20,000 nucleotides of DNA. Source: Vermamoeba vermiformis. Its lineage: Eukaryota. Below are positions 1 to 19,625 of this stretch, piece by piece. Under the pieces are notes generated by a model. It was not told the DNA's origin. It saw nothing but the letters and a program-made list of their open reading frames with translations, and ran no database searches. The translations under genes and the position numbers were made by a program. Every line of letters begins with the position of its first letter. Positions within the stretch are counted from its first letter, which is position 1. The DNA lies in the NCBI GenBank assembly GCA_045837725.1, contig JBEWZL010000202.1, positions 557,235 to 577,234 of the forward strand, given 5' to 3'.

Positions 1-2010
1 AGGAAATTATTTAGCTGACTTGGGAGACCACCTGAGGTGCCACATCTGGTAATTGTTCACTTGACCTCCTGTTGGCGAGTATTATTCTAAATATTTTTTT
101 TCAGCTTATCCACGCTCGTGGATCCACATTCATTACCTTGTAACCACTTGTTTTGCAAGTAAGAAAATGCATAAGTAATTTTATTAATTTCTAAAAAATG
201 TCGGATCTCACCCGCTCTGCACAAAAGGCTAATAATAATGTCGAATTATATTAAATATCTATTTTAGAGAATGTATTTCGCGTAGTATAACGCAGAAGGC
301 TCAATGTCCAGTATGTCGCATTCCATGCTACAAGCGCGACATTAAGAAAAATCATCAGCTGAGCGCTATTGTATCATCGTTCGATAAATTAGTCGCTTTG
401 CAAAAGAAGCGAAAGCGCGAGCCAGAAGATGATGATGGTAGCGAAGAACCATTTTTTAAGAAACCAAAGCGCAGCCCGAGTGTACGTCTCTAATAATAGC
501 AGCATGCGGGAACAGATTATAATTTGCGAAATATAGGCGAAGGAGACGAAGAAAAAGACCGAAGTTAATGGTGACAGTCCTAATCACCCGCCGTCGAGCA
601 GCGAAATGCAGTCCTTGTTGAAGCAATTAAAGGCGCACGACGAGCATTTAGACGAAATAGATAAGTTGCTGGCACAGACAGGTACGCCACATTAAGAAAT
701 TCATTGGTTTGTCTAATGACGGAAAAATATTAACGGCTGTAGTCACTCCATTGGATGGTTCACCGGTCAAGTCGCTGCCAAACAGCCGCAAGAATTCAGA
801 CCTCAATTCACAAGAGTCGATCAACGGCTCGGAGCGAAAGAGAGTGTCGCAGCTCAGTTTTGACGGGCAACAAGAATCAGAACAGTTTGGGAATGACAGT
901 CTACCACAAGACTCCAATCGTAGCGCGATTGATACACCTGTCAGGAAGTCACCACGACGACCGGGTGGCAATAAAAAGACACCACCAAAGACTAAAAAGA
1001 AGGAGTCGTCCTCGGTTGTTGAATCAGATGAAGAAAAAGAGAATAACGAGGCATCGAGTAACAAGGCTAAAATCAGTACCAGAGCAGTGTCAGCCAAGTC
1101 ATCTTCGAGCAAATTTGTGTTGTTGCCGACGAGTCTCAATGACGAGGCATTGGTAAGTCCATTAATGTAAGGTAGACGTGCTCGTTAACCATAGTTGACA
1201 GATGGAGTTGAAAGAAGTGGCCAAGCAACTCGGAGGCTCAGTGGTGAAGCATTTCAACGCCAAAGTGACGCACATTGTCACTGACTATGTAGCACTGCCT
1301 GCAGCGAGTATCAAGCGGTCACCGAGCGGATTATCAAACAGCACCAACAACAGTCTGATGCCGCAGCAGAATGTCGACAAGAACAAAGTTTTGAAAGCCG
1401 CAAAAAGAACTGTCAAGTTTTTAATGGGCATTTTGCAAGGGAAGTGGATGGTCACGATGGATTGTAAGTGTCATTGTCGCTAGCTTTAGCTTTGTGTCTT
1501 TAGTTAACCTCGGAAATCAAGGGATAAAGCAGTGCAGAAAAGAAGGACAGTGGGTCGCCGAAGACTCGTTTGAAATTGAATGCGATACACTCGGCAATGT
1601 CGGAGGACCGCAACGAGGGCGTATAAGCATTGGTCAAAAGGTAAATATAATCCAAATATATCAAGTCAAGTAATGTTCCTCCGCTCATTATGTGTTTGTC
1701 GCAGACTTCACCGCTGTTCAATAACTACACAGCGACACTTTTGGGAGATTTCCGTGGTCCTACTAAACCCGAATTTCGACAAGTGTTGGAGTCAGGTGGT
1801 GCGGAGGTTGTGAATAGAATAACCAAAAATGACACAGATCGTGAAGGATTTATTACACTTGCAATACTAGACGCGCAGCTATCGAGCGACAAAGTTGAAA
1901 AGCTAACGAAGACATTGGGGGAGGATGTTGAGGTGATTAAATCTTCGTGGGTCTTGGATTCGATCAGTTGCTACGAAATTTTGCCGTTTGCAAATTATCG
2001 ATTTGCATAG
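1..2010 (+). CDS. BRCA1/BARD1-like protein: N-terminal C3HC4 RING, low-complexity linker, tandem BRCT repeats (5'-partial, 8 exons in window)
   Basis: Hand-spliced exons <2-48, 105-158, 268-481, 537-681, 743-1152, 1202-1463, 1522-1640, 1705-2010 (all GT-AG, phases consistent). RING reads CHICLSTLVDPHSLPCNHLFCKECISRSITQKAQCPVCR followed by NHQLSAIV. BRCT1 contains VTHIV...RTVKFLMGILQGKWMVTMDW (cf. BRCA1 RTLKYFLGIAGGKWVV). BRCT2 contains PLFNN...GG...SSWVLDSISCYEILP. About 518 aa lie inside the window. Confidence 0.88.
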
Positions 2011-2184
2011 TAGTTACCAAACTTAGTAAAATAAAGATGTAAATAGTGGAAAAATAATGAAATGTAATTTTCAACCAACCGCAGGATCGCTAAATTTTGG
2101 AATTTCTTAACGGGTCGTGTCAAAAATCGGACAAACGACTTTTTCGTTGGCAAATTTGACTGACGAAACAACCACTCAGCAACA

Positions 2185-5100
2185 ATGGAAGCACCACAGA
2201 TCGACGTGTCTGTGGGGTCCTTCGCCCTTCTCTCCGACGAAATAGTTTTGCACATCCTTCAAGTATGCTTTGCTAAGAACAAATAATTTCCTGGTGCATT
2301 ATAACTAATATATAAATAAATATTGTTTTAATAGTTTTTGAAGCCTGGACCAAGTATTGGAGCAATATTTCAAACTGCAAAACGATTTGGTGCATTTTAT
2401 GCAAGTCAGCATTTTTGGTAAGTATTATTTATGATATCCAACGGCTTTTGTAATATTATTTTGCAACCAGCTATTTTTTTGGTTGCGTTGTAAAAATATA
2501 GACTGGATCTTGACAGATCTTTAAAGTTGCAACGCGCTTCCAAGCTATCGAAATTAGAATCACACAAAATCCTTTATTTGCTCTATTTTCCAGAAGATTT
2601 AAATTCAGATTTATCCTCATTTTGAGAAAACGTTAATTAATTGTAGATCCCGTGTAAAATTACTGATTTTTTAATTATTCTATCAGGAGAGATTTGCACA
2701 CGAGATTTTACGGTTCACCAAAACCGCCCACAAGATCATGGCGAGATTTTGCTATTGAATCTTATTTAAAGTCAACTGAATTCAAGAAATTGTTGGTGGT
2801 GGATCCGTCGAAATCCAGTGTTTATGTGGAGACAAAACTCGCTTGGGCTGTGAAAAGTGGACACGCAGCTATGGTAGAGCGCATGTTAGTGAAGCATTTG
2901 TCCTCTTTGGCCAAGCCATTCTTGCGTAAGATTCTGACAAGTGCGTGCCACCGCGGGTTTGCGCGGATCGTGACCTTGTTGCTGGATTGTCACGTCGATG
3001 TCAATAGTGCAAGACCAAAGTCAGGCTCGACGCCATTGTTTTTCGCATGGTAAGCATTTGCTCATCGTTAGTGGAATTCCTGATCCGATCTAACAATGTG
3101 AGCAGTCAAGAGGGTCGCACTGAAATCGTCGAGCTGTTGCTGCGAAACAAGGCTAATCCAAACATATCACGTGCTGATGGTTCTACTGCCTTGTACATTG
3201 CTGCACAGAATGGCCACAGACGAGTGGTGGAGCAGTTGTTGGATGCCGGTGCTTCTCCGAATGCAGCTTGTCAGGACGGAGCAACGCCCTTGTTTATCGC
3301 CAGTCAAGAAAGCCACGCTGATGTGGTGAAAGTTCTTGCCTCGCGTGGAGCAAACGTTGATGCGCCGTTCTGCGATGGCACCACCGCCTTGATCGTCGCT
3401 GCTCAAAATGGTAGCGAGGCAGTCGTGGAAATCCTTATCAAGCATTATGGTACGAAGTTCAAATCATAGCAATGTGTTCTAACCACGATATTAGCCAATC
3501 CTAATGCGAAATGCGAGGACGGAACTACGGCACTGTTTGTCGCGTGTCAGAACGGCAAAACAGAGATTGTGCGTCGTTTGTTGGCTTTGCCGTCAATTCG
3601 CATTAACTCTGCGTCGACCGAAGATGGTTCTACACCACTGTACATTGCGTGTCAGAATGGGCATTTGAGCGTCGTTGAGGCGTTGCTTGAAGTACCTGAT
3701 ATCGGTAAGCTCAATCAAGTAGCCAAGGCATTAGTACTAATCCTTTTTAGATGTCAACATTGCAACCACTGACGGCACAACGCCCTTGCATGTCTCGTGC
3801 TTCAAGGGACACCAGAAGATCTCGCGGTTGCTCATCGAGAAGGGCGCCAATGTTAATTCCAACCAAAAACAGGGAGGAGTGCCGTTACATTACGCCTGTC
3901 ACAACGGTGACATCAAGACTGTAAAGTTGTTAGTTCAACACGGTGCCAAGCTGGACGCCTTCCGCTCCAATCAACGCGGCACTGCTTTGATGCTGGCGTG
4001 TCAAAAAGGTCATCTCTCTGTGGTCAAAGCATTGATCAACGCTGGCGCAGACGTCAATGTGGCCTCGCAGAATGGCACGACTGCATTGTATCGCGCTTGC
4101 CAGAATGGACACTTGCCTGTCGTCAAAGCGTAAGTAGCCGAGTGCCTCATCAACATGACTTGAACTAATGTCTTGGTGTCGCAGTCTGTTGAAAGCTGAC
4201 GCTAAGGTGAATGCTATACGTAGCAACAATTCAACGCCGCTCTATGCAGCATGTTGCAATGGCTTTGTGGAAATCGTGGACTTGTTGTTGAAGCACGGTG
4301 CTGACTTGCATCTTCGGTGCACTGACAAAACAACTGCTTTCTCCGTGGCATGTCAACACGGCTACGCTGATATCGTGCAGCTTCTGTTGGAGCACGCCAA
4401 ACGATTAGCACAAACGATCAACAACACGAACATCAACAACGAAGAGGTGGAGGAGCTCGATCACATCGAAGTTACCATTCCAAAGTCGCCTGCTGCCAGT
4501 CCTCGTGCTAACAGACCCAACAAGCTCAACGCTAGCATCGAGTCACCTGCGAGCATCAAAATAACGCAGCTGCACACTGAAAAGATCAAGGGCAAGTTCA
4601 AGCGACTGATGAGCAGAATCCAGTCCTCAGATAGGATCGTGCCCTCCAACAACAATACCAACGTTGCTTTGCCGGTGGATTCGCCCAAGCAGATCGACAC
4701 CGAGATGCGATCAAGTGATGGACTCACGCCATTGTTACAAGCGTGCCACGAAGGTCACGTCGAAGTGGTGAAGTGTTTGATTGACCACGGCAGCAACTTG
4801 CAAGCTACCTGTCGCTACGGCTACACCGCTCTGCACATTGCCAGCTTGAACGGCCACCGTGACATTGTGGAGCTATTGCTCTCCTTGCATGCCATCAACA
4901 TCGATCAGAAAGGTGATGAAGGCATGACAGCATTGCATTTGGCGTGTCGCAAAGGCAACTTGGAGGTTGTGCAGTTGTTGCTCGATTTCAACGCCAATCT
5001 CGAGGCGTGCACTCGCCATGGCATGACGGCGCTGCACTTAGCTTCTAAGCGCGGCTACGCTACCATTGCAGAGATGTTGCTCAAACAAGGTGCACGTGTC

Positions 5101-5370
5101 AATGCCATGTGCAAAGAGAACAATACGCCGTTGCATTACGCGTGCAAGTACTCGCATGTTGATACCGCTGCCGTGCTGCTCAAGTACGACGCAGACTTTG
5201 ATATCGAGTCAAAAGAGCGATTGACCCCGCGAAGAATTGCTGCTGAAAAAGGACCTGAAGAGCTGTTGCAGCTGATCGAGAGTGCTGTCGATAATAACAA
5301 TAACAAGTCTGGAAATATTATCGACAAACTCAAGCGCTGGACAACTAAGAAGATACTCTCGAAGAAGTAA
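2185..5370 (+). CDS. F-box + multi-ankyrin-repeat protein (7 exons)
   Basis: ATG at 2185; approximate introns 2263-2334, 2418-2687, 3050-3104, 3449-3494, 3705-3750, 4130-4184. The spliced N-terminus FALLSDEIVLHILQFLKPGPSIGAIFQTAKRFGAFYASQHFWRDL resembles an F-box. It is followed by roughly 20 ankyrin repeats (G-T-P/A-L-x-x-A-x-x-x-G-H...LL..GA.VN), split by an N/S/P-rich linker at ~4410-4700. Stop at 5370. Confidence 0.88.
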
Positions 5371-5456
5371 TATGTACATAGTGCCCAATTGTATTTTTGT
5401 GTAATATAAAATGTAAATTTGTTTGCGACTTTTGTGTCAGATATTTTGTTGCAACA

Positions 5457-6956
5457 ATGGCCACAGATCCGATATTTAATAATCAAGATTATGCTGAGAC
5501 TATTAAAAAGGAAGTGCTCAAACGAGACAAAACAGTTCTAGCAAGTTCTTTTTCCGCGGATGGTGATTATTTGATCTGCGGAAGCAATAGAGGGTACATT
5601 GCAGTATGGTACTTGCCTAAATATTTTGTAAGTCATAATTTGTGTTTTTTTTCGTCGCAGATGCAGTGAGTAATTTATAAAATACAAATTATTAATAGCG
5701 ATAATTTAGAACTCCGAAAACCCGTTCAATTCTGCTCAAAGGTAATATAAAATTAACAGTAAAAAATATTGCCGATTTTTCTAACCATTTATTTGCTCAG
5801 CGGACCCGATCTGACTTTTAAAGCCTTCGATGGCGCTGTATATTGTTTGGAATCAATTATTATACAACACAATATCATTTTAATAAGGTAGGTACCATCA
5901 AAATGTAAAATTAACCCCTCTAAATTAATACAACAGTGGTGGTCAATTCTCGGTCAAAGCATGGAGTTGGTCTGACATTACAAACAAGATTTCAAACAAA
6001 AAACAAGACTTAAGTACGTTAAATTTGCCTTAATAATAGTCGTACTAACCGCGGTAGATATTAAACTCATGTTCGAGCTCAAAAACCCCGTGCCAACCAC
6101 CGCTTCAGCATTCAGTTTTCTGGCCGAGACAAATGCAGTTTCGTTCGACGACAGCGTGAGTGACAATGCTCGAGATCCTTATATGAAGAATAGTGTTTAA
6201 CTTTGGTTTAGAAATCCACATTGTTCACAGCGTGCGGTGACAACAAGGCCTACGCATGGAATGTTGAACGACAAACAGTACTGCGCAGTTTTGAAGGACA
6301 CACGGCCTATTTGCATTGCTTAAAGTGGTCAAAACAAAAACAGCAATTGTTCACCGGCTCTGAAGATGGCACAGTGCGCATTTGGGGTATGGACAAAAAC
6401 TACGGGTGTAGGGCCTTACTTACTCTTTTACGGTAGATTTAAGCGTCAAAGACCAGCTGGGGATTTTAGACCCGCTTCAAGGCACTGCGTTAAAGACACA
6501 AAAGGAGGCGCAAGCCAAAGATAATACTAGCAGCAATTGGATTTCGTGTCTGGATCTAGACAGCAGCAGCGAGTGGCTTGTGTGTGGTGGTGGAGGCAAA
6601 TATTTGAGTCTGTGGTACTTGCCTATGCAACACGTCACGTCATACTTGCCAATGCTGGCGCCCGTGCAAGATGTGTTTTTTTACGAGGACTCGGTAAGCG
6701 AGCACTGCGGTACGAGGCGAGAGGCTAATTAGTTTCACAGATCGTCTCGGTTGGTCTTGAAGACAGTGTATATAATTGGAAATTGAACGGAAGTCTAGTG
6801 TCCAGGGCGGAGTCCAGTTCGAAAGCAATTTACACCGCCAAATACAACACGAGCGGGCATAACAAAGTGATGGTGACTGCAGGAGCGTCGAGTAGTATTG
6901 ATGTGTATTATTCTTTTTCACGGAAAGCGTTCTCACTGCTTTGGGACGAACAATAA
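5457..6956 (+). CDS. THOC6: THO complex subunit 6 homolog (WD40 protein), multi-exon
   Basis: ATG at 5457 (MATDPIFNNQ...TVLASSFSADGDYLICGSNRGYIAVW). Internal exons encode AETNAVSFD, LFTACGDNKAYAWNVE..FEGHTAYLHCL..LFTGSEDGTVRIWD and WISCLDLDSSSEWLVCGGGGKYLSLW, which match THOC6 motifs. The last exon, 6741-6956, ends ...VTAGASSSIDVYYSFSRKAFSLLWDEQ*. Confidence 0.8.
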
Positions 6957-7012
6957 ATGTAAATCATCCAGTGAAAAGCAAGTCGTGGCACTAACCAGAG
7001 TAGCTATTTACA

Positions 7013-9495
7013 TTACATTACAATACAATTCTTATCACCGTTGCCAGTGGTTACAGTTGAAGAGGAGCCTTTGCCGTTCTCCTCGTTCCATTTTGCGAGT
7101 TCTTTTTCGTAGTCCTCTAAATCTTTCAAGTACGACAGTGGCGGCCATTGGTTCTCTTCAACGAACTTCAAGTTCTCTTTCGTCAGTTGTGCGAACTCGG
7201 GACGTTTCTTCATTGGTTGATAATTAGATGCGACGAAGTGCAGACAGAACTTGGCTAATTGATTGGCGTTGTGTTGTTGTGCTAACTGCAGCAAACCAAT
7301 GACGTCAATGTCTGCCTTTTCAATGCCTTTCTCGCAAGCTCGTTCGACCATCTTTGAGATGTACAGCTCGCATAGAGTACCGAGACGAGTTACTTGATAA
7401 CGATCGGCAAGCATCAATAGACCAACAGCATCGCCTTCTTCGATCGGTGCGTGTTCCGTATAGATGTACTCGAGCAAGGGCAAGAAGGTCTCAGCAGCGC
7501 AGTCAGAAATTGAAATCGTGTTCGTGCGTGACTCTTTGAATCCACCGCTGAATGATGCGCTCAACACGTCACATCGTGCGGTGATGACGGCTTTGTGCAC
7601 GGGAATGAATCGGTCCATCACTTGGATCTTGAAGTCGCTGTACAACTCTTTGTCGAAGAACAAGTACTTGGCCTTGTCTGCAGTGCGATCGTTCAACCAC
7701 GTGCCAATGCTAGGATTGAGTTCACCCAAGTCTTCGCGGATGTTCTGGCAGTAGGTCGCGAGTTCTGGAATGTCGTATGTTTCTGCTGCCGTGATGGTCT
7801 CGCTGAGCAAGTCCTCTTTGCCTTGGATCGTGGCCATGCCTGTGTACAAGAACTCGAGCACACGCGCGAACACCTTGGCTTTGATACTCGAGTGCAGGCG
7901 AATGACCGTCTGAAATGCAAGGGTCAGTCATTTGCATTGCTTCCACTGCTCACATTAGACTTACTCGTTGCACGGTCTTGCCGTCTTCTTGCCATTGAGA
8001 CTCGTACATTTCAGCGAATCCTCGAACGTTTCCGTTGCTAATATCTTCGGCCGAGATGGGACTGAAGGTATCGGTCTTGACGAGGTGTTTCTCTTGCTCG
8101 TCCTTGCTGTCCTTCTTCGACTTCTTGTTGCTCTCCATGTACTTCTTGGTGCGGTTGTTCAAATCTTCAAAGTACTGCGAGTCATCGACGTTGAAGATGC
8201 GGCAGAACAGTCTCGAAGCAGAGCACAGCACCATTTTGTGCGCGAATAGCTTGTCATCCTCGACGCGGAACTCGACGTCAGCGAACTGTTTGTGATTGAC
8301 GAGTTTCTTGAAATCTTCGGCAATGCGCGCATTTTCTGCAACAACAGTCAGCAAAAAGAAGCCCAAACGAGCCAAGATCACCGTACCAATATTAATCCAA
8401 GGAGCAGGGCCAGCACGAGGCATCACGGGGGGCAGTGGCTTGCACTTGCCATTGATGCCAATGATCTCTTTTGATTTTTTGCCCTTCTTGCCGCCTTTCT
8501 CACCCGACGAGCCACCGCTCAGCGCCGCTTTGATCGCCGTGTCAAACGTGTTCAGCAGTCCGTTTTGAGTCAGAGCACTGTCGTCGATGTTAGTCGATGG
8601 ATTACTAGTGATCGTGGTCCGCGTACCTGTTCTCGCAATAAGCTACGGCACCAATCTCTTTAGCCAAGGCGCGACCCTGCTCAGTAGTAATAGGTGACAT
8701 GTCACGCTCTCGCAGACGCTGGAGCGCGTTTTGATCTTCACGCAGATCGAGTTTGAGACCGCACAATACGATGGGAGTGCTGCAGTAATGGCGTCAGATC
8801 TCGACTAAAAAGTCTAAGCAAACGACTTACTTTGGGCAGTGGTGCACGATCTCCGGTACCCACTTGTCTTTAACATTGCTGAATGAAGTGGGCGATACTA
8901 ACGAAAAACAGACCAAAAACACGTCCGTTTGTGGGTAACTAAGTTCAAATAACCGTTAGTATTTTGAAGGCTCGGGGTGTTCACTTCGTTCTTTACCTTA
9001 AAGGCCGCAGTCGGTCGTAATCTTCTTGTCCTATCATAATTCACTAATTAGTAAACGGACGAGACGGAGCTCTGATCGCATACCAGCCGTGTCCCAAAGA
9101 CCGAGATTGATCGGTTTACCAGCAACCATGACGTTAGCACTGTGATTTGTTATTTGTTGCTCTTCATTATTTAAAATATTTATAATAACGGATAGTGTGT
9201 CATTACAATTACCTGTAATTGTCAAAGACGGTCGGCACATACTCGCCTGAAATTTAGATCAGAATTTAATTCGTGAAAGCAAAAAAACCTGAATGAACTT
9301 ACCAGGAAAGCTGTTCGTTGTGTACGATATAAGCAAGCAACTTTTTCCAACTAAATAGTAAAAAAAATTAATAGATCATTTATCGCATTGCAGTTCGGCC
9401 TGTTTTTTTACACGATGGAGTGTTTAAATGCACGAGAATTTTCATTAAATCGTACCTGCTCCGTCACCAACGACTACGAGTTTGATCGACTGCAT
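7013..9495 (-). CDS. racA: RhoBTB/RacA-type protein: Rac-like GTPase, proline-rich region, two BTB domains, C-terminal domain, CAAX
   Basis: Spliced minus-strand model: [83 protein letters not shown]...[25 protein letters not shown]...EN|SALTQ, then [20 protein letters not shown]1 ([20 protein letters not shown]...[11 protein letters not shown]) carries an insertion; BTB2 reads [20 protein letters not shown]. Ends NCIVM*. The architecture is that of Dictyostelium RacA / RhoBTB. Confidence 0.92.
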
Positions 9496-12979: not shown

Positions 12980-13145
12980 AAACCAAGTTCCAAGCAAGTC
13001 CTGAGGCAGTTGAACTACGTTCCGAGGCTGTCGAACCAAGTTCCGAGGCTGTCGAACCAAGTTCCGAGGCTGTCGAACCAAGTTCCGAGACTGTCGAACC
13101 AAGTTCCAAGGCTTTCTGAGGTGGTCAAACCAAGTTACAAGGCAA
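12980..13145. repeat. 21-bp tandem repeat (GAACCAAGTTCCGAGGCTGTC)n
   Basis: About 5 near-perfect copies at 13012-13114 with degenerate flanking copies. The array generates the spurious ELGSTAS/SSEAVEP/NQVPRLS ORFs in the track. Confidence 0.95.
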
Positions 13146-13370
13146 TCTAACCTTATTCAAAAAGCCTGTCAACGTTCACTAACCCAAAGAATAGTGAAAA
13201 AAGTAAATAAACATTTATTAAACCTCATTAGTCACAAGCATAGTGCAGTCACATGTATTTGACTTAATCAATTTAAGTTTTGTAACCAGCCATCACAAAG
13301 TAAAATTGAACTAAGTCAAACACTCATGACAGTGTATAAACCTCTTAAAACATACTGTGACTGCACTGCA

Positions 13371-13574
13371 AAAATTCATCCAAGTCCAACATTCGCGACC
13401 GCACTGGTCACAAAGTAAAATGACACGAAGTTCAACATTGTGACCATGCTGGTCACGAAGCGAAAATTCATCCAAGTCCAACAGTCGTGACCGCACTGGT
13501 CACAAAGTAAACTGACGCTAAGTTCAGCATCGTGACCGTGCTGGTCACGAAGCAAAAACCAATCCAAGTCCAAC
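13371..13574. repeat. 92-bp tandem repeat (2.2 copies) made of two ~46-bp subunits, each with a GTGACC-N5-GGTCAC inverted repeat
   Basis: Units start at 13371, 13463 and 13555. Dyads occur at 13395, 13440, 13487 and 13532 (spacing 45/47/45). Degenerate traces extend back to ~13280. Confidence 0.92.
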
Positions 13575-13969: not shown

Positions 13970-14879
13970 AATTGGCGGCTTCCAAGAGTAATGAGAAAGG
14001 AGAATGAAATTTCAATGTTGAGGGTATCAATGTTGGTTAATTGGTAAATGGATGCTTTAAATGAATAGAAGCATGAAGTATGATCCTGCTTCATATTCAT
14101 GTCCGCATCATAAATGATGGGCGGCACCCAATAGAAGAGAGATGAGTGGATGAGAGGAGAGTGATAGCAATCAATGCAAATAGATTGTTATTGTAATCAA
14201 TGCTATTTAACAGCTTATTAATGCTTTAAATCTATTGAAGCATGATATCTAATCCTGCTTCATTTCCGCTTTCATTCTGAAATGCGGCACACAGATAATG
14301 AGAATGATGCATTGAATCTAATGAATTTGTTCTTAATGTTAGGTGGATTCCAAGTAATGAGAATAGATAGATGATATCAATGTAAGTTCAATGTTAACGA
14401 ATGCTTTAAATGTATTGATGCACGATATCTGATCCTGCTTCTTTTCCGCATCATTCTGATTGGCGGTATCCAATAGAGTGAAATTGATTCAAATCCTATG
14501 ATTATTCTCTAAATGTTAGGTGGTATCCAAGAGAGATAGATGATGAATGATCAATGTTTTGTATCTATTTTCTTAGGTGGTACCCTATAATGAGAGAGTA
14601 GAGTGTGATCTAATGCAAAGTCTGCTCATTTCTATTTAATGTTAAGTGGATTCCAATGAGTGAGATCAAAGCAATTTAATCTGATGTGTGGTGGTATCCA
14701 AGTGAAGGAGAATTGAGTGTAAATGCTGATGCTTCAGTCAAATGTTAAGTGGTATCCAAGTAATGACATTCAATGCAATCTAATGCAAATATTCTCTGAT
14801 GTTAAGCGGTATCCTGATAAAGAGAATGATATTGGTGAATGTATGATGTTTTATTCTTAATGTTAGCTGGCACCCAATA
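13970..14879. repeat. Degenerate array of the motif TGTTA(G/A)(G/C)TGG(T/C)A(T/C)CCAA with variable AT/purine-rich spacers, plus three copies of a ~65-bp block
   Basis: GGTATCCAA-like cores at 13977, 14123, 14286, 14345, 14465, 14522, 14579, 14648, 14693, 14751, 14808 and 14869. The block ATGCTTTAAAT...ATCCTGCTTC...TCCGC recurs at 14052, 14221 and 14401. Confidence 0.8.
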
Positions 14880-14901
14880 TTGTGCCGTCAGGTCAAGTTT
14901 T
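14880..14901 (+). repeat. Left terminal inverted repeat
   Basis: Exact reverse complement of 17224-17245; preceded by TA. Confidence 0.96.
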
Positions 14902-14946
14902 GTCAAGATTTAACTTTTTACTTTCTTAAATTTATTTTTTTTACTT

Positions 14947-14981
14947 AAAAAAAAATCCCGCAGCCGTACACCGCTGCAGGA
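14947..14981 (-). other. GC-rich stem-loop followed by a U9 tract, directly after the ORF2 stop codon
   Basis: The minus strand reads TAA-GG-TCCTGCAGC-GGTGTACG-GCTGCGGGA-TTTTTTTTT: a 9-bp stem with one G-U pair, an 8-nt loop and 9 T. Confidence 0.75.
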
Positions 14982-14983
14982 CC

Positions 14984-16062
14984 TTAATAATTGATTAAAT
15001 ATTCAAGATAAGCCTTGCGCTTAAAGATTTCTTGCAACTTTTTGTCGAATTCTTCCAAATCCGTAATGCCGGTGAAATCCACAATGAACTCCTCTGTTTC
15101 AAACTCGACTATTTTCCTCTCATGTTCGCGGCGCTCTTGAAGACTTTTAAATGGTTTTCGTTTGGGTAAAACAGGCTCAGGAGGCAGATCAGCAGTTGCT
15201 TCCTTCGCTTCCACTTCGGATTCAGCCACGCTTTTTTCTGTGGCATCACTCGTGGAAATTTCAGCATCGCTTTCAAGCTCAAGGCCAATTGCGTAGTCAA
15301 ATGATGCTCCGACTGATGCAGTAAGCTGGAAATAGTTTAGATCCAAGAAGATTCACTAGATTTAATTTCAACGAACCTTTGGCTTCTTTTTCAAGGCCGG
15401 CGAATTATATTCCTCTATTTTTCGCTTCAAAGTAAGCGAGACGGCCTTGGATAGCCCTTCAGGATTCCTGATCAATTATGATCAGATTTGAAAACTTAAA
15501 AATTTAACAACCGTACTTATGCTTGCCGTTGGATTTCGGCACAAGAGACGTGGGCATGGAAAAACGGGTTTTGTTGAAGAGCTCTTGTTGCCTAGCTGTT
15601 TCATTGGCTTGATAAACCTGCTTTTCTTTGGCGTAGGCAGATTTGGCTCGTTCTTGCTCTTCATTTTTCTTGGTAACCCAGGCTTTGACTCGCGATGCTC
15701 TCTCATTAACGTTTTGGAGGTAGCGATGCTCAATTTCGACGTGCCCCTCTTTGCCAAATTAATTTCGAAGAATTTTTTGACAGATTGCGCAACTTACTTT
15801 GTGAGGTAAAATACTCTGTAGGACAAGTATCAATCGAGACACACGGACCGGTGCAAATTTTGCTATGCCCCACACCATTTTTGTATTGGTGGCAGGTGGT
15901 GCAAGTCTTGGTGCCCTTCTTCCTGTTACCAGGCGCGTTGTCTGGATCCCGGTACTGGTATTTAACTGGCTTTGGATCGTCTGGTACCAGTATATCGTAG
16001 TCACTTTCGTTGTACTTGCGAAACGATTGAAGAAGTGGTCGCTCGTTTGTGTTGTTCTCCAT
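14984..16062 (-). CDS. Transposon-borne ORF2, ~309 aa, 4 exons: Cys/His cluster (putative Zn finger), coiled coil, bipartite-NLS-like motif, acidic C-terminal region; function unknown
   Basis: Exons 16062-15798, 15748-15517, 15467-15377 and 15325-14984. GT-AG introns of 49, 49 and 51 nt give one open frame of 930 nt. The protein includes MENNTNERP...CTTCHQYKNGVGHSKICTGPCVSIDTCPTEYFTSQKGH...KKNEEQERAKSAYAKEKQ...LKRKIEEYNSPALKKKPKL...RKAYLEYLINY*. Confidence 0.82.
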
Positions 16063-16087
16063 AATTTTTGGATTTGAAATCAAAAAA

Positions 16088-17183
16088 ATGCCGCGAGGAC
16101 CACAAAACAGGCGCAAAGAGCGAAGAACCTTCCGCCTGGGTATATTGCGGCTGAGATATTATTTAAATCTCTACAGCCTTGCCCTGGACGTTGGTATTGC
16201 AGCTGCTGCTCGGATTTTGGGAGAATCTCGGCAGATTGTGCTTTACTGGGTCAATAAATTCCAAGACGAGACCTTCCACAGCAATTCACATGGTGGATGC
16301 CGCTGGGCGAAATGGAATGGCGAGGAGAGAATCCATTTGTTAAACAGTATTTGGCAAATCTGTAAACAAAATCCGCTTGCTGGAATTCCTGATTTTCAAA
16401 TCGCTCTACAAACGGAATATGGATTTGATAATGTACCTAGCCATGGCTGGTTATCAGCTCTGTTCAAAAAATGGCGGTGGTCATTCAAAAAACCGGATGT
16501 ACGTCAAATCCAGAAGTACAGCGAGGAAAATATCGCATATTATGCAACGTATCTCTATTGTATTCAAGATATTCCTTGGAATAAGATCAAATTCTGTGAC
16601 GAAAGCCACTTTGATTCTCGGGGTACGTGTCCTGATATTTTTGGAAGAAAATTCTGATCACGAAACAGATTTGCGAAAAAAGGCAGTATTATCGCCTATT
16701 AATCGCCCAGCATGTGTTGTGATGGAAAGTGGTCCCATTAGCAAGCGTTATACCTTGACACTTATGACTTCACTGAGCGACATTAATCCCTTCCCCGTTT
16801 TGTTTTCGCTGCGCGAAGAAACAAACACTGCCGATGCTTTCCTGGAGTTCGTTACATTTGCTATTGAACGCCACTACCTTGTGGATGGTGATTATTTAGT
16901 TATTGATAATGCACCGATCCACACAGCGACAGATGAACTTGCCGTTTTGGTAAATCTGCTAGAAACGTACAATATTCGCCTCATTTTTCTTCCCACATAT
17001 TCACCAGAATTAAATCCTTGTGAACTATGTTTTTCCTTCATCAAACGGACAATCCGAGAGCGATCAAATCCGAGAAATGATGGATTTGATACAGAAATCG
17101 TTAAAACGTGCCTTAAAATTACACCAGATAATGTATTTAACTTTTATACAAAGGCTATAATCGATGCCTTGTTCACTCAATAA
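16088..17183 (+). CDS. IS630/Tc1-like DDE transposase (DD38E), 349 aa, one 46-nt intron
   Basis: Exons 16088-16622 and 16669-17183; intron 16623-16668 is GTACGT...CTGAT..CAG. HTH motif GIAAAARILGESRQIVLYWVNK. Catalytic motifs FCDESHF, VIDNAPIH and FLPTYSPELNPCE, with 38 residues between the second D and the E. No stops after splicing. Confidence 0.93.
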
Positions 17184-17223
17184 TTAAAAATAATAAAAGA
17201 AAGTTAAAAGTTAATTTTTGCGT

Positions 17224-17245
17224 AAAACTTGACCTGACGGCACAA
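17224..17245 (-). repeat. Right terminal inverted repeat
   Basis: Exact reverse complement of 14880-14901; followed by TA. Confidence 0.96.
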
Positions 17246-17370
17246 TAAGAGAGATCAGTTCATTAAAGCTTCAATTCTTCTTTTTCTTCTGTTTTGATAG
17301 CTGGTACCCAATTAGTATACTATGTAGGGCTAACTTCCACTTTAGGGTTTAACTTTTTAACTTTTTTTAC

Positions 17371-17525
17371 AGGGGCGTCCCCGCGGCGTGGACGGGGGTC
17401 TGGTCAAACTTGGTCAACAAGGGGGCGTCCCCGTGGCGCGGACGGGGGTCTGGTCAAACTTGGTCAACAAGGAGGCGTCCCCGTGGCGCGGACGGGGGTC
17501 TGGTCAAACTTGGTCAACAAGGGGG
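17371..17525. repeat. 50-bp GC-rich tandem repeat, 3 copies
   Basis: Unit GGGGGCGTCCCCGTGGCGCGGACGGGGGTCTGGTCAAACTTGGTCAACAA starts at 17371, 17421 and 17471, with 1-3 differences per copy. Confidence 0.96.
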
Positions 17526-18402: not shown

Positions 18403-19625
18403 TTACAGAGAATACATGCTCAGATCTACATTGTCATATGTGTTCTTGATATCCTCTATTATTGCTTGTGCCTGATCTTCAAGAATTAATTTAACAAGAG
18501 TTGCAACGGAAACAGGGGAGGAATAGTCGTTGATATCAAAATTGTTGGCAGAGTCAAGTAGCAGGAGCCTTTTTCCATCCTTAAGAAAATCACGAAGAAA
18601 CTTCAAGCAAATTGGCTTTGATTTCTCCATCACCCATAAGTATGGCAAAATGTGGAACAGGTGGTGCGCAATCTCGGCAGAAACTAAGGTTGTGCTTTTT
18701 TCCCCCTGTAAAGTCATGTAATTTAAATATAAGCTTATATTTGAAGTAAAAATAAAGTTACTTACCAATTGCCAACCAAGTAAATCTTTTGCTGGCTCTT
18801 TGCGCACGATCTTTTCTTGATGTTTTTGCAACATAACCACGTCGATGTTTGGATTGTGCTTAAACAACTTGAAGCACTCATAAAGCCCTTGAACAGTAAC
18901 AGAAATCCTTGCAGAATTAATTACCTGTCATTTGTGCGGTTAGCCTTGTGTCCTATTGCATTGCATTAAAAAACTAAAAGAAATACTTACAGGAATTTGC
19001 ACAATGCTTTGCATAGCGTATGGCTGCAGTACGTGGTAAATTCCATTTGGATCACTAAAACAAGCAATTAGCATACATTCAATTTAACAATATTTGTACT
19101 TACTGCAGGTCAATAACTTCCAAGTTGGTGAATTTTTTCTGCATTTCCGCAATTAATTTGGAGCTATTGACATTTGCAGTAAAAATGAGGGGAGGAGATT
19201 GCGCAGGGGAGGCTGGAGGGTTGGGAATAGAAGCTGTGTCGTGCACCTCATCCACATCAATAGCATTCGTGGGACCTCCTTGTGGGGAAAACCGGTCACT
19301 GAGGTCACTCTCAGAAGAAGTTTCTATTATTAACAGTTAGAATGACTAAGAACAATAAGATTTCAACAGTATTACCTTCAGACTGCTTCTTTGATTTGGA
19401 CTTGGCACGGGCAAGCGCATTCACCCTCTTTACTACAAGGAGGTAGAATTAGTAAAACAGGTGTCAATAACAAGATAAGTACATACTCTCCTCCTCGGTT
19501 GGTTTATATCCTGGAGGTTTGCCTGAAAAATGCCAGATGTCAGGATTCACCGAGACAGATGACAGAACAAAAATATAATAATACTCACCTGCGTAGAGCA
19601 TAATTATTTTGTCAGCAAAGTTCAT
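18403..19625 (-). CDS. Hypothetical multi-exon protein (>=7 exons); both ends uncertain
   Basis: Consecutive GT-AG introns join in phase: MNFADKIIMLYA|GKPPGYKPTEEE|IKRVNALARAKSKSKKQSE|ETSSESDLSDRF...PNPPASPAQSPP...LEVIDLH|DPNGIYHVLQPYAMQSIVQIP|VINSARISVTVQGLYECFKLFKHNP...GWQL|GEKSTTLVSAEIAHHLF...DNVDLSM. It stops at 18403, or at 18330 via one more intron. No family was recognised. Confidence 0.6.

Follow-up and report, generated by a model that had tools for sequence, protein, structure and literature searches.

A second spliced gene, conserved as strictly as the transposase, inside an IS630-like DD38E transposon of Vermamoeba vermiformis

The stretch of Vermamoeba vermiformis DNA analysed here (the window; 20,000 nucleotides of contig JBEWZL010000202.1) carries at positions 14880-17245 a 2366-bp transposon of the IS630/Tc1/mariner (ITm) kind, in which two divergently oriented genes lie between inverted repeats at the termini (terminal inverted repeats, TIRs). 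One gene encodes a transposase with a DDE_3 domain; the other, a four-exon open reading frame (ORF) hereafter referred to as ORF2, is a protein-coding gene under conservation as strict as that of its companion transposase.

Both ends of the element are formed by perfect 22-bp TIRs (14880-14901, plus strand, and 17224-17245, minus strand; 0 mismatches). No further match to this 22-mer was found in the window at up to three mismatches, and none of 200 shuffled sequences contained two matches. Inwards of the 22 bp, a weaker inverted similarity continues to ~65 bp (83%; 62 nt at 71%). The dinucleotide TA lies directly outside each end (14878-14879 and 17246-17247), constituting the left and right copies of the target-site duplication (TSD). 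A 17-bp subterminal block (14911-14927, plus strand; 17197-17213, minus strand) is located ~31-48 bp from each end. Since the three full-length copies described below all retain this block at either end, with at most one mismatch, while the spacer preceding it varies, the element ends can be described as bipartite, with the block as their second part.

The transposase gene (349 aa, plus strand) starts with an ATG at 16088 and consists of two exons separated by a single 46-nt GT..AG intron (16623-16668). Exon 1 (16088-16622) encodes the putative N-terminal DNA-binding part and the first catalytic aspartate (D171), and exon 2 (16669-17183, including the TAA stop codon at 17181-17183) encodes the DDE_3 domain with D258 and E297. 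The spacing of 86 and 38 residues between the members of this triad defines the enzyme as DD38E. Protein family, profile, fold, and complex searches for both genes were run exon by exon, so that domains spanning exon junctions may have been missed. In these searches exon 2 matched Pfam DDE_3 at 5.8e-16, and exon 1 gave a weak match to HTH_33 (E = 0.059), a family that is significant in three of its relatives (P0004-P0006, 9e-8 to 3e-9).

ORF2 (309 aa) is read from the minus strand, starting with an ATG at 16062 and ending with TAA at 14986-14984. Its exon 1 (15798-16062) contains a conserved N-terminal motif and a Cys/His cluster, exon 2 (15517-15748) a basic region, and exon 4 (14984-15325, with the stop codon) an acidic stretch predicted to be disordered, followed by a two-helix C-terminal module; exon 3 lies at 15377-15467. 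The three introns (15749-15797, 15468-15516, and 15326-15376; 49, 49, and 51 nt) all have GT..AG borders. The two genes fill nearly the entire element, leaving 82 nt between the ORF2 stop codon and the left TIR (14902-14983), 40 nt between the transposase stop codon and the right TIR (17184-17223), and 25 bp between the two divergent start codons (16063-16087). Nowhere is the element less conserved than in this start region (56% identity between subfamilies). Given a gap of 25 bp, the promoter or 5′ untranslated region (UTR) of each gene must overlap the other gene, or else the 5′ UTRs must be very short; a sliding comparison of synonymous and non-synonymous differences per site (pS/pN) along both genes gave no specially constrained stretch that would mark an embedded promoter. 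In the 3′ UTR of ORF2, a GC-rich hairpin with a 13-bp stem (14952-14985, minus strand) begins 1-4 nt after the stop codon. It has a predicted energy of −20.5 kcal/mol (z = −4.27) in the window, and its counterpart in one of the other copies (L023, 2669-2699, plus strand) reaches −22.2 kcal/mol (z = −5.53). The stem is preserved across subfamilies despite letter changes, a run of nine U follows it in the window, and the 3′ UTR of the transposase has no counterpart. The hairpin might have a role in 3′-end formation or serve as a protein-binding site.

A preliminary description of this locus, made from the sequence alone, had reported perfect TIRs with a TA duplication, stop codons ~82 and ~40 bp from the TIRs, an intact DD38E transposase, and a divergent four-exon partner gene lacking kinase, tyrosine-recombinase, and RuvC signatures. 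Its account of the element proved correct in every point checked, the two distances being exact; the 'four introns' it mentioned correspond to three in ORF2 and one in the transposase gene. Exon-wise Pfam searches of ORF2 indeed yielded no kinase, tyrosine-recombinase, or RuvC/TnpB family at E ≤ 1.

Other copies of the element were sought by scanning metagenome contigs of JGI and ENA for the 18 outermost bases of the TIR, which returned 25 loci; the same 18-mer had no matches in IMG/VR. Four loci showed similarity extending beyond the 18-mer (blastn, 1e-5): two of them (L012 and L023) are complete elements of 2339 bp with both genes intact, and two (L004 and L018) are end fragments at contig edges. 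The remaining 21 showed no other similarity at this threshold and were set aside as chance matches or as too diverged. L012 and L023 differ from one another at only 0.3% of positions (99.7% identity), and each is surrounded by TA..TA in otherwise unrelated flanks, which indicates that this subfamily has moved recently. Aligned end to end with the window copy, both show 84% identity, and they occupy different TA sites. The level of identity varies by part, from 100% in both TIRs to 82-89% in exons and 63-80% in introns. In all three full-length copies, representing two subfamilies, both genes are intact and all four introns retain GT..AG borders. The only insertion or deletion in ORF2 between the subfamilies measures 9 nt and is in frame.

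Selection was assessed with the Nei-Gojobori method by comparing the window copy with L023. For ORF2 (305 codons, 85.9% amino acid identity), the non-synonymous (dN) and synonymous (dS) divergences were 0.073 and 0.866, giving a dN/dS of 0.085; for the transposase (349 codons, 90.3% amino acid identity), they were 0.048 and 0.514, giving 0.093. The deficit of non-synonymous changes was significant for both genes (Fisher's test, p = 9e-42 for ORF2 and 4e-34 for the transposase), and sliding pS/pN showed that the constraint spans their whole length. Because ORF2 is intact and linked to the transposase in all three full-length copies, because its introns are joined in the contigs described below, and because its dN/dS resembles that of the transposase, we regard it as a selected gene borne by the element rather than debris. 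The preliminary description had likewise argued against captured debris and had proposed a search for copies, a dN/dS comparison, and confirmation of the introns; its view is upheld by the presence of undecayed ORF2 in every full-length copy at three TA sites, by the retained intron positions and the splicing reported below, and by the dN/dS values.

Transcription was examined by aligning four sequencing runs to positions 14700-17400. One of these (X3) consists of contigs from a differently labelled organism, for which the label 'RNA' is a guess; the other three (X22-X24) are RNA runs from the source species. Four X3 contigs aligned over 1752 nt with 10 differing letters (99.4% identity), leaving 16016-16177 uncovered. 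Their junctions fall at 15325-15377, 15467-15517, and 15748-15798 in ORF2 and at 16622-16669 in the transposase gene, joining the flanking exons exactly, so that each of the four predicted introns is missing from GT to AG. These contigs are most simply read as spliced mRNA of both genes. Parts of the element's set of 31-letter words also occurred in runs that carry the labels of five other organisms, as well as in metagenomes of drinking water, aquifer, water, plant, root, and algae. Among runs X3-X20, X3 alone was aligned; the small word shares of X4-X20 are a lead on range or horizontal spread, and nothing is concluded from them on habitat or host range.

We then considered what kind of protein ORF2 may encode. 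Within exon 1, the cluster residues C54, C57, H58, C70, C74, and C80 are invariant across six aligned sequences, as are the flanking residues T53, K61, N62, G63, G72, P73, P81, T82, and Y84, while H66 is not. The cluster is predicted to bind metal through five cysteines and one histidine, with zinc as the default reading; its Cys...Cys-Pro ending is also reminiscent of iron-sulphur motifs. The middle of the protein (residues 89-196) is basic, with an isoelectric point of 10.07 and 25 K/R versus 12 D/E, and is followed by an acidic stretch predicted to be disordered (residues 197-245; 12 D/E versus 2 K/R), which is identical between the subfamilies over ~30 residues. An AlphaFold2 model of exon 4 placed the last ~60 residues with confidence in two helices (block predicted local distance difference test score, pLDDT, of 74-90). 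The charge composition of the middle and of the acidic stretch fits a nuclear nucleic-acid binder. The one low-scoring family hit, PFEMP on exon 2 (E = 0.0091), was under its own cut-off and was rejected as chance.

A profile built from four ORF2 exon 1 sequences found three matches at E ≤ 0.001 among 1,835,955,588 representative proteins (P0001, 2e-44; P0009, 6e-23; P0010, 1.5e-4), all of them short frames from short contigs, and revealed no host gene family. Relatives of exon 1 range from 30 to 62% identity, with P0001 at 61%. All three proteins depart from the conserved sequence exactly at the end of exon 1, where ORF2 has its first intron, suggesting a shared intron position. Exon 4, in turn, retrieved close copies only (four proteins at 77-99% identity). 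Pattern searches with exon 1 alignments gave no confirmed match among 140 hits in JGI metagenome contigs and 99 in IMG/VR (both with alignment A1), or among 8 hits in GTDB genomes (alignment A3). The contigs encoding P0001 (2954 bp) and the transposase relative P0003 (2312 bp) are each about one element long, as though derived from a collapsed multi-copy repeat. At most, this hints at a two-gene layout in those distant lineages as well.

For the transposase, a word-index search of proteins recovered seven relatives (P0002-P0008), all of which keep the 38-residue spacing. P0002 is the transposase of the subfamily formed by L012 and L023. In P0003 (52% identical), the frame continues through an intron located where the window copy has its own, and P0004-P0008 (38-46% identical) lack an intron at that place. 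The NCBIfam IS630 profile NF033545, an equivalog model, aligned to both exons, with model positions 13-155 covered by exon 1 (1.3e-5, 24.8 bits) and 198-282 by exon 2 (4.2e-16, 59.3 bits), while the curated cut-off is 100 bits and each exon scores under it. When GTDB genomes were scanned for the motif around the catalytic glutamate, the search confirmed 90 of 110 pattern matches, mostly in Bacteroidota and Verrucomicrobiota; bacterial IS630 copies share 27-42% identity with the transposase over longer stretches, with a best score of 48-54 bits. Its sole PDB match was a faint one to the catalytic domain of the Tc1-family transposase SB100X (E = 0.13, 15.3 bits); mariner chains were absent at E ≤ 1. 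On these alignments, the transposase is best placed within the ITm superfamily as IS630-like, with bacterial IS630 as a closer neighbour than Tc1. The transposase alignment retrieved 81 loci, of which 80 are bacterial or archaeal and one is viral (L026), and ORF2 had no match in any of them. As a separate observation, the chromosome of one Ekhidna metagenome-assembled genome carries at least 15 IS630-type copies that share the catalytic-glutamate motif with the eukaryotic transposase (L036, L044, L046, L047, L053, L057, L060, L068, L073, L081, L094, L100, L101, L104, and L106).

The surroundings of the element are eukaryotic, and the long ORFs of the window are open under the standard genetic code. 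Host genes with large exons and short introns occupy positions 600-8650 and 18403-18927, and encode a BRCT-domain protein, an ankyrin-repeat protein, a WD-like protein, a protein with two BTB/BACK units (minus strand), and a DUF6939 protein (minus strand). The element itself lies in a gene-poor, repeat-rich interval (~11.5-18.4 kb) with tandem repeats on both sides. Neither a second copy nor a fragment of it was detected within the 20-kb window, and an Rfam search of the window returned no families. A 50-bp tandem repeat unrelated to the element (17372-17525; 3.1 copies, 96% matches) is found ~125 bp beyond its right end, and each repeat unit has a GC-rich palindrome-like core. Two further tandem repeats, at 12995-13113 and 13368-13574, are respectively a 21-bp unit (5.7 copies) inside a long minus-strand frame and a 92/45-bp repeat to the left of the element. 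A word of ~16 nt has three variants to the left (14720-14880) and one to the right (17290-17320) of the insertion site, and an older repeat, dispersed or tandem, may have been the place of insertion.

Judged by its sequence features, the element appears to be an autonomous and recently mobile cut-and-paste ITm transposon of an IS630-like DD38E lineage, in a eukaryotic host that uses standard stop codons. Under the mechanism that we propose, the transposase, composed of a probable helix-turn-helix (HTH)-type N-terminal half and a DDE_3 half, would bind the bipartite ends (22-bp TIR plus 17-bp block) and move the element by cut-and-paste, with excision followed by insertion at TA, as in other ITm elements. 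ORF2 would be retained because it helps the element to spread, acting as a nuclear metal-cluster cofactor with affinity for nucleic acid or chromatin and assisting the transposase either at the element ends or at the target site, in the manner of the Myb-like protein of PIF/Harbinger transposons. We assign a probability of about 0.5 to ORF2 being an element-encoded accessory protein of this type, most likely a nuclear nucleic-acid- or chromatin-binding cofactor of the transposase. The reading draws on the linkage of the two genes, their splicing and selection, the existence of a wider ORF2 family, the composition of the protein, and the precedent of the ciliate elements TBE and Anchois.

Several observations weigh against this cofactor role. 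The Tc1, Mos1, and Himar1 transposases work alone in vitro, and there is therefore no expectation of a cofactor in this superfamily. Searches for folds, homologues, and interactions gave nothing that points to any particular role for ORF2: Pfam gave no credible family at E ≤ 1 for any of its four exons; profile searches of PDB reached best E-values of 1, 1.2, and 0.8 for exons 1, 2, and 4; Foldseek with the C-terminal two-helix model had no PDB match at E ≤ 0.001 (best 5.4); and Atlas searches peaked at 0.81 for exon 1, which is under the lead level, and at 0.87 for exon 4, where the matches were unnamed bacterial clusters and do not constitute a lead. The AlphaFold2 model of exon 1, built from a six-row alignment, was unusable (pLDDT 51.6). 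The sample of full copies comprises three, from two subfamilies. As for expression, the X3 contigs could formally also be intron-less DNA copies, given the guessed label. From ~13 million records read in each of the source-species runs X22-X24, only 3, 5, and 2 reads fell on the element stretch, all 90-95% alike and nearly all on an A/T-rich bin, and the window copy thus looks silent in these runs. A complex prediction with the transposase halves and ORF2 exon 4 scored 0.01, a value that says nothing for or against an interaction. The preliminary description had gone further in calling ORF2 a dedicated accessory factor: a real, element-linked, and selected gene stands, whereas the targeting, anti-silencing, or transpososome role it suggested gained no specific support.

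The strongest competing explanation, which we nonetheless consider rather unlikely, is that ORF2 is an element-encoded and selected regulator and not a helper of transposition, one that blunts host silencing or damps the element's own activity. The VANC proteins of Arabidopsis Mutator-like elements, for example, counter host silencing. Linkage, splicing, and selection suit such a regulator just as well, and the conserved acidic disordered stretch of ~30 residues would be apt for interaction with proteins or chromatin; silence in the source species alongside expression in X3 would imply that regulation exists, and divergent starts 25 bp apart would couple the expression of the two genes. At the same time, no pointer to a silencing pathway and no homology to any known regulator was found in the sequence, and the sequence data do not separate a regulator from a cofactor.

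It is less probable still that ORF2 is a captured host gene, either a passenger or a transduplicate, kept for a host function or simply because the capture is recent, with no role in the element. DNA transposons do capture host genes, and the ORF2 introns of 49-51 nt are host-like. However, the gene has been kept by two subfamilies at a dS of 0.5-0.9 with a dN/dS equal to that of the transposase; it is packed without spare sequence between the TIR (82 nt) and the transposase start (25 bp); its exon 4 retrieved close copies only; and its three relatives among 1.84 billion proteins are exon-1-sized fragments with no host gene family among them. Retention across subfamilies, the missing host family, and the tight packing together disfavour capture. 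Finally, the idea that ORF2 is no real gene but a chance series of exons, which the lack of a family match might suggest, can be dismissed in view of three introns joined in X3 contigs, frames intact in three copies, a dN/dS of 0.085 (p = 9e-42), and relatives at 30-62% identity.

The retention of ORF2 matters beyond this locus. ITm transposons are the textbook minimal mobile element, consisting of one gene and two ends, and it is this simplicity that has made tools of Sleeping Beauty and mariner. A second gene under transposase-like selection suggests a need or an advantage outside the minimal model, be it in recognising the ends, entering the nucleus, choosing a target, or escaping silencing. 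A bolder proposal, which we advance tentatively, is that ORF2 founds a new 5-Cys/1-His family, of zinc or iron-sulphur type, and is the obligate second component of a non-ciliate IS630-like lineage. If so, the ITm superfamily, whose transposases are otherwise taken as self-sufficient, would here have its first two-component system from outside the ciliates. In any case, the element gives the multi-ORF elements of ciliates a non-ciliate counterpart and adds an orphan family of putative metal-cluster proteins. Being small (2.4 kb), seemingly intact and recently mobile, and accompanied by a diverged sister subfamily, it opens the question of ORF2 function to a direct assay with and without the gene.

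Compared with known systems, the element shows the DDE_3 domain, the 22-bp TIRs, and TA on both flanks in all three copies that are typical of ITm transposons, and departs from their usual, though not strictly defining, lone-transposase state in having two genes inside the TIRs. PIF/Harbinger transposons are two-gene units with a DDE transposase, a Myb-like DNA-binding protein, and a 3-bp TSD. The present element resembles them in outline, as a TIR-bounded unit combining a DDE transposase with a second unrelated gene, and a requirement for ORF2 would be by analogy only; it differs in belonging to another superfamily, in giving no Pfam match to DDE_Tnp_4 or Myb/SANT, and in its TA duplication. 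Some Tc1/mariner elements carry Fanzor/TnpB as a second ORF inside the element. In contrast to those, none of the ORF2 exons matched a RuvC family or a zinc ribbon of TnpB type at E ≤ 1, and at 309 aa ORF2 is too short to be a Fanzor. Bacterial IS630 elements have short TIRs and target TA. The present transposase shares with them the NF033545 profile across both exons and the common catalytic-glutamate motif, and is set apart by its sub-threshold profile scores, by spliceosomal introns, and by the accompanying second gene.

Most Tc1/mariner elements are reported to have a lone gene (PMC7731502). The same source describes the animal Intruder family (DD38E/IT) as single-ORF elements of 1.5-1.7 kb that target TA and encode a transposase of 341-379 aa, closest to DD34E/Tc1 at ~35% identity. 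The element in the window has the same 38 residues between the second aspartate and the glutamate, the same TA target, and a transposase of similar size. Compared by description and not by sequence, it is nevertheless not an Intruder, given its 2366 bp, its two genes, and a transposase nearer to IS630 (48-54 bits) than to SB100X (15.3 bits); the shared DD38E spacing looks convergent.

The closest parallels in layout come from ciliates, whose Anchois, Tennessee, Sardine, Thon, TBE, and Tec elements likewise combine an IS630/Tc1 DDE transposase with one to three further ORFs inside TIRs. TBE of Oxytricha is reported to have three ORFs, all under purifying selection, with a dN/dS of 0.1-0.3 for the accessory ones (PMC4724952); Tec of Euplotes is described as carrying a tyrosine recombinase (PMC7325037); and Anchois of Paramecium is presented as a 3.6-kb element with ~22-nt TIRs, a DDE_3 transposase with a possible intron, and two hypothetical ORFs, alongside the related multi-ORF cases Sardine, Thon, and Tennessee (PMC3464196). 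The present element has two genes in 2.37 kb against the three ORFs of Anchois. It is DD38E where the ciliate transposases are DD34E or DD35E, and its extra gene was compared with theirs by description and not by sequence. Relative to TBE, whose ORFs include a zinc-finger/kinase protein and whose ends are telomere-like, ORF2 lacks a kinase family in Pfam, the ends are 22-bp TIRs and not telomere repeats, and there are two ORFs instead of three; relative to Tec, Sardine, and Thon, no recombinase family was found and the TIRs are short where theirs are long or palindromic. The extra ORFs of Anchois and Tennessee were not among the exon 1 profile matches in 1.84 billion proteins, a library that possibly does not contain them. 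The use of TAA as a stop codon, the long ORFs under the standard code, and introns of ~50 nt argue that the host is not a ciliate of the Paramecium or Oxytricha type. The full-text literature, taken without Repbase, Dfam, subscription journals, and supplements, yielded neither a two-gene ITm element from a non-ciliate nor any account of the ORF2 protein. Since ciliates have multi-ORF IS630/Tc1 elements with hypothetical ORFs, the multi-ORF layout is not in itself new; a second spliced and conserved gene is unusual for IS630/Tc1/mariner elements outside that group.

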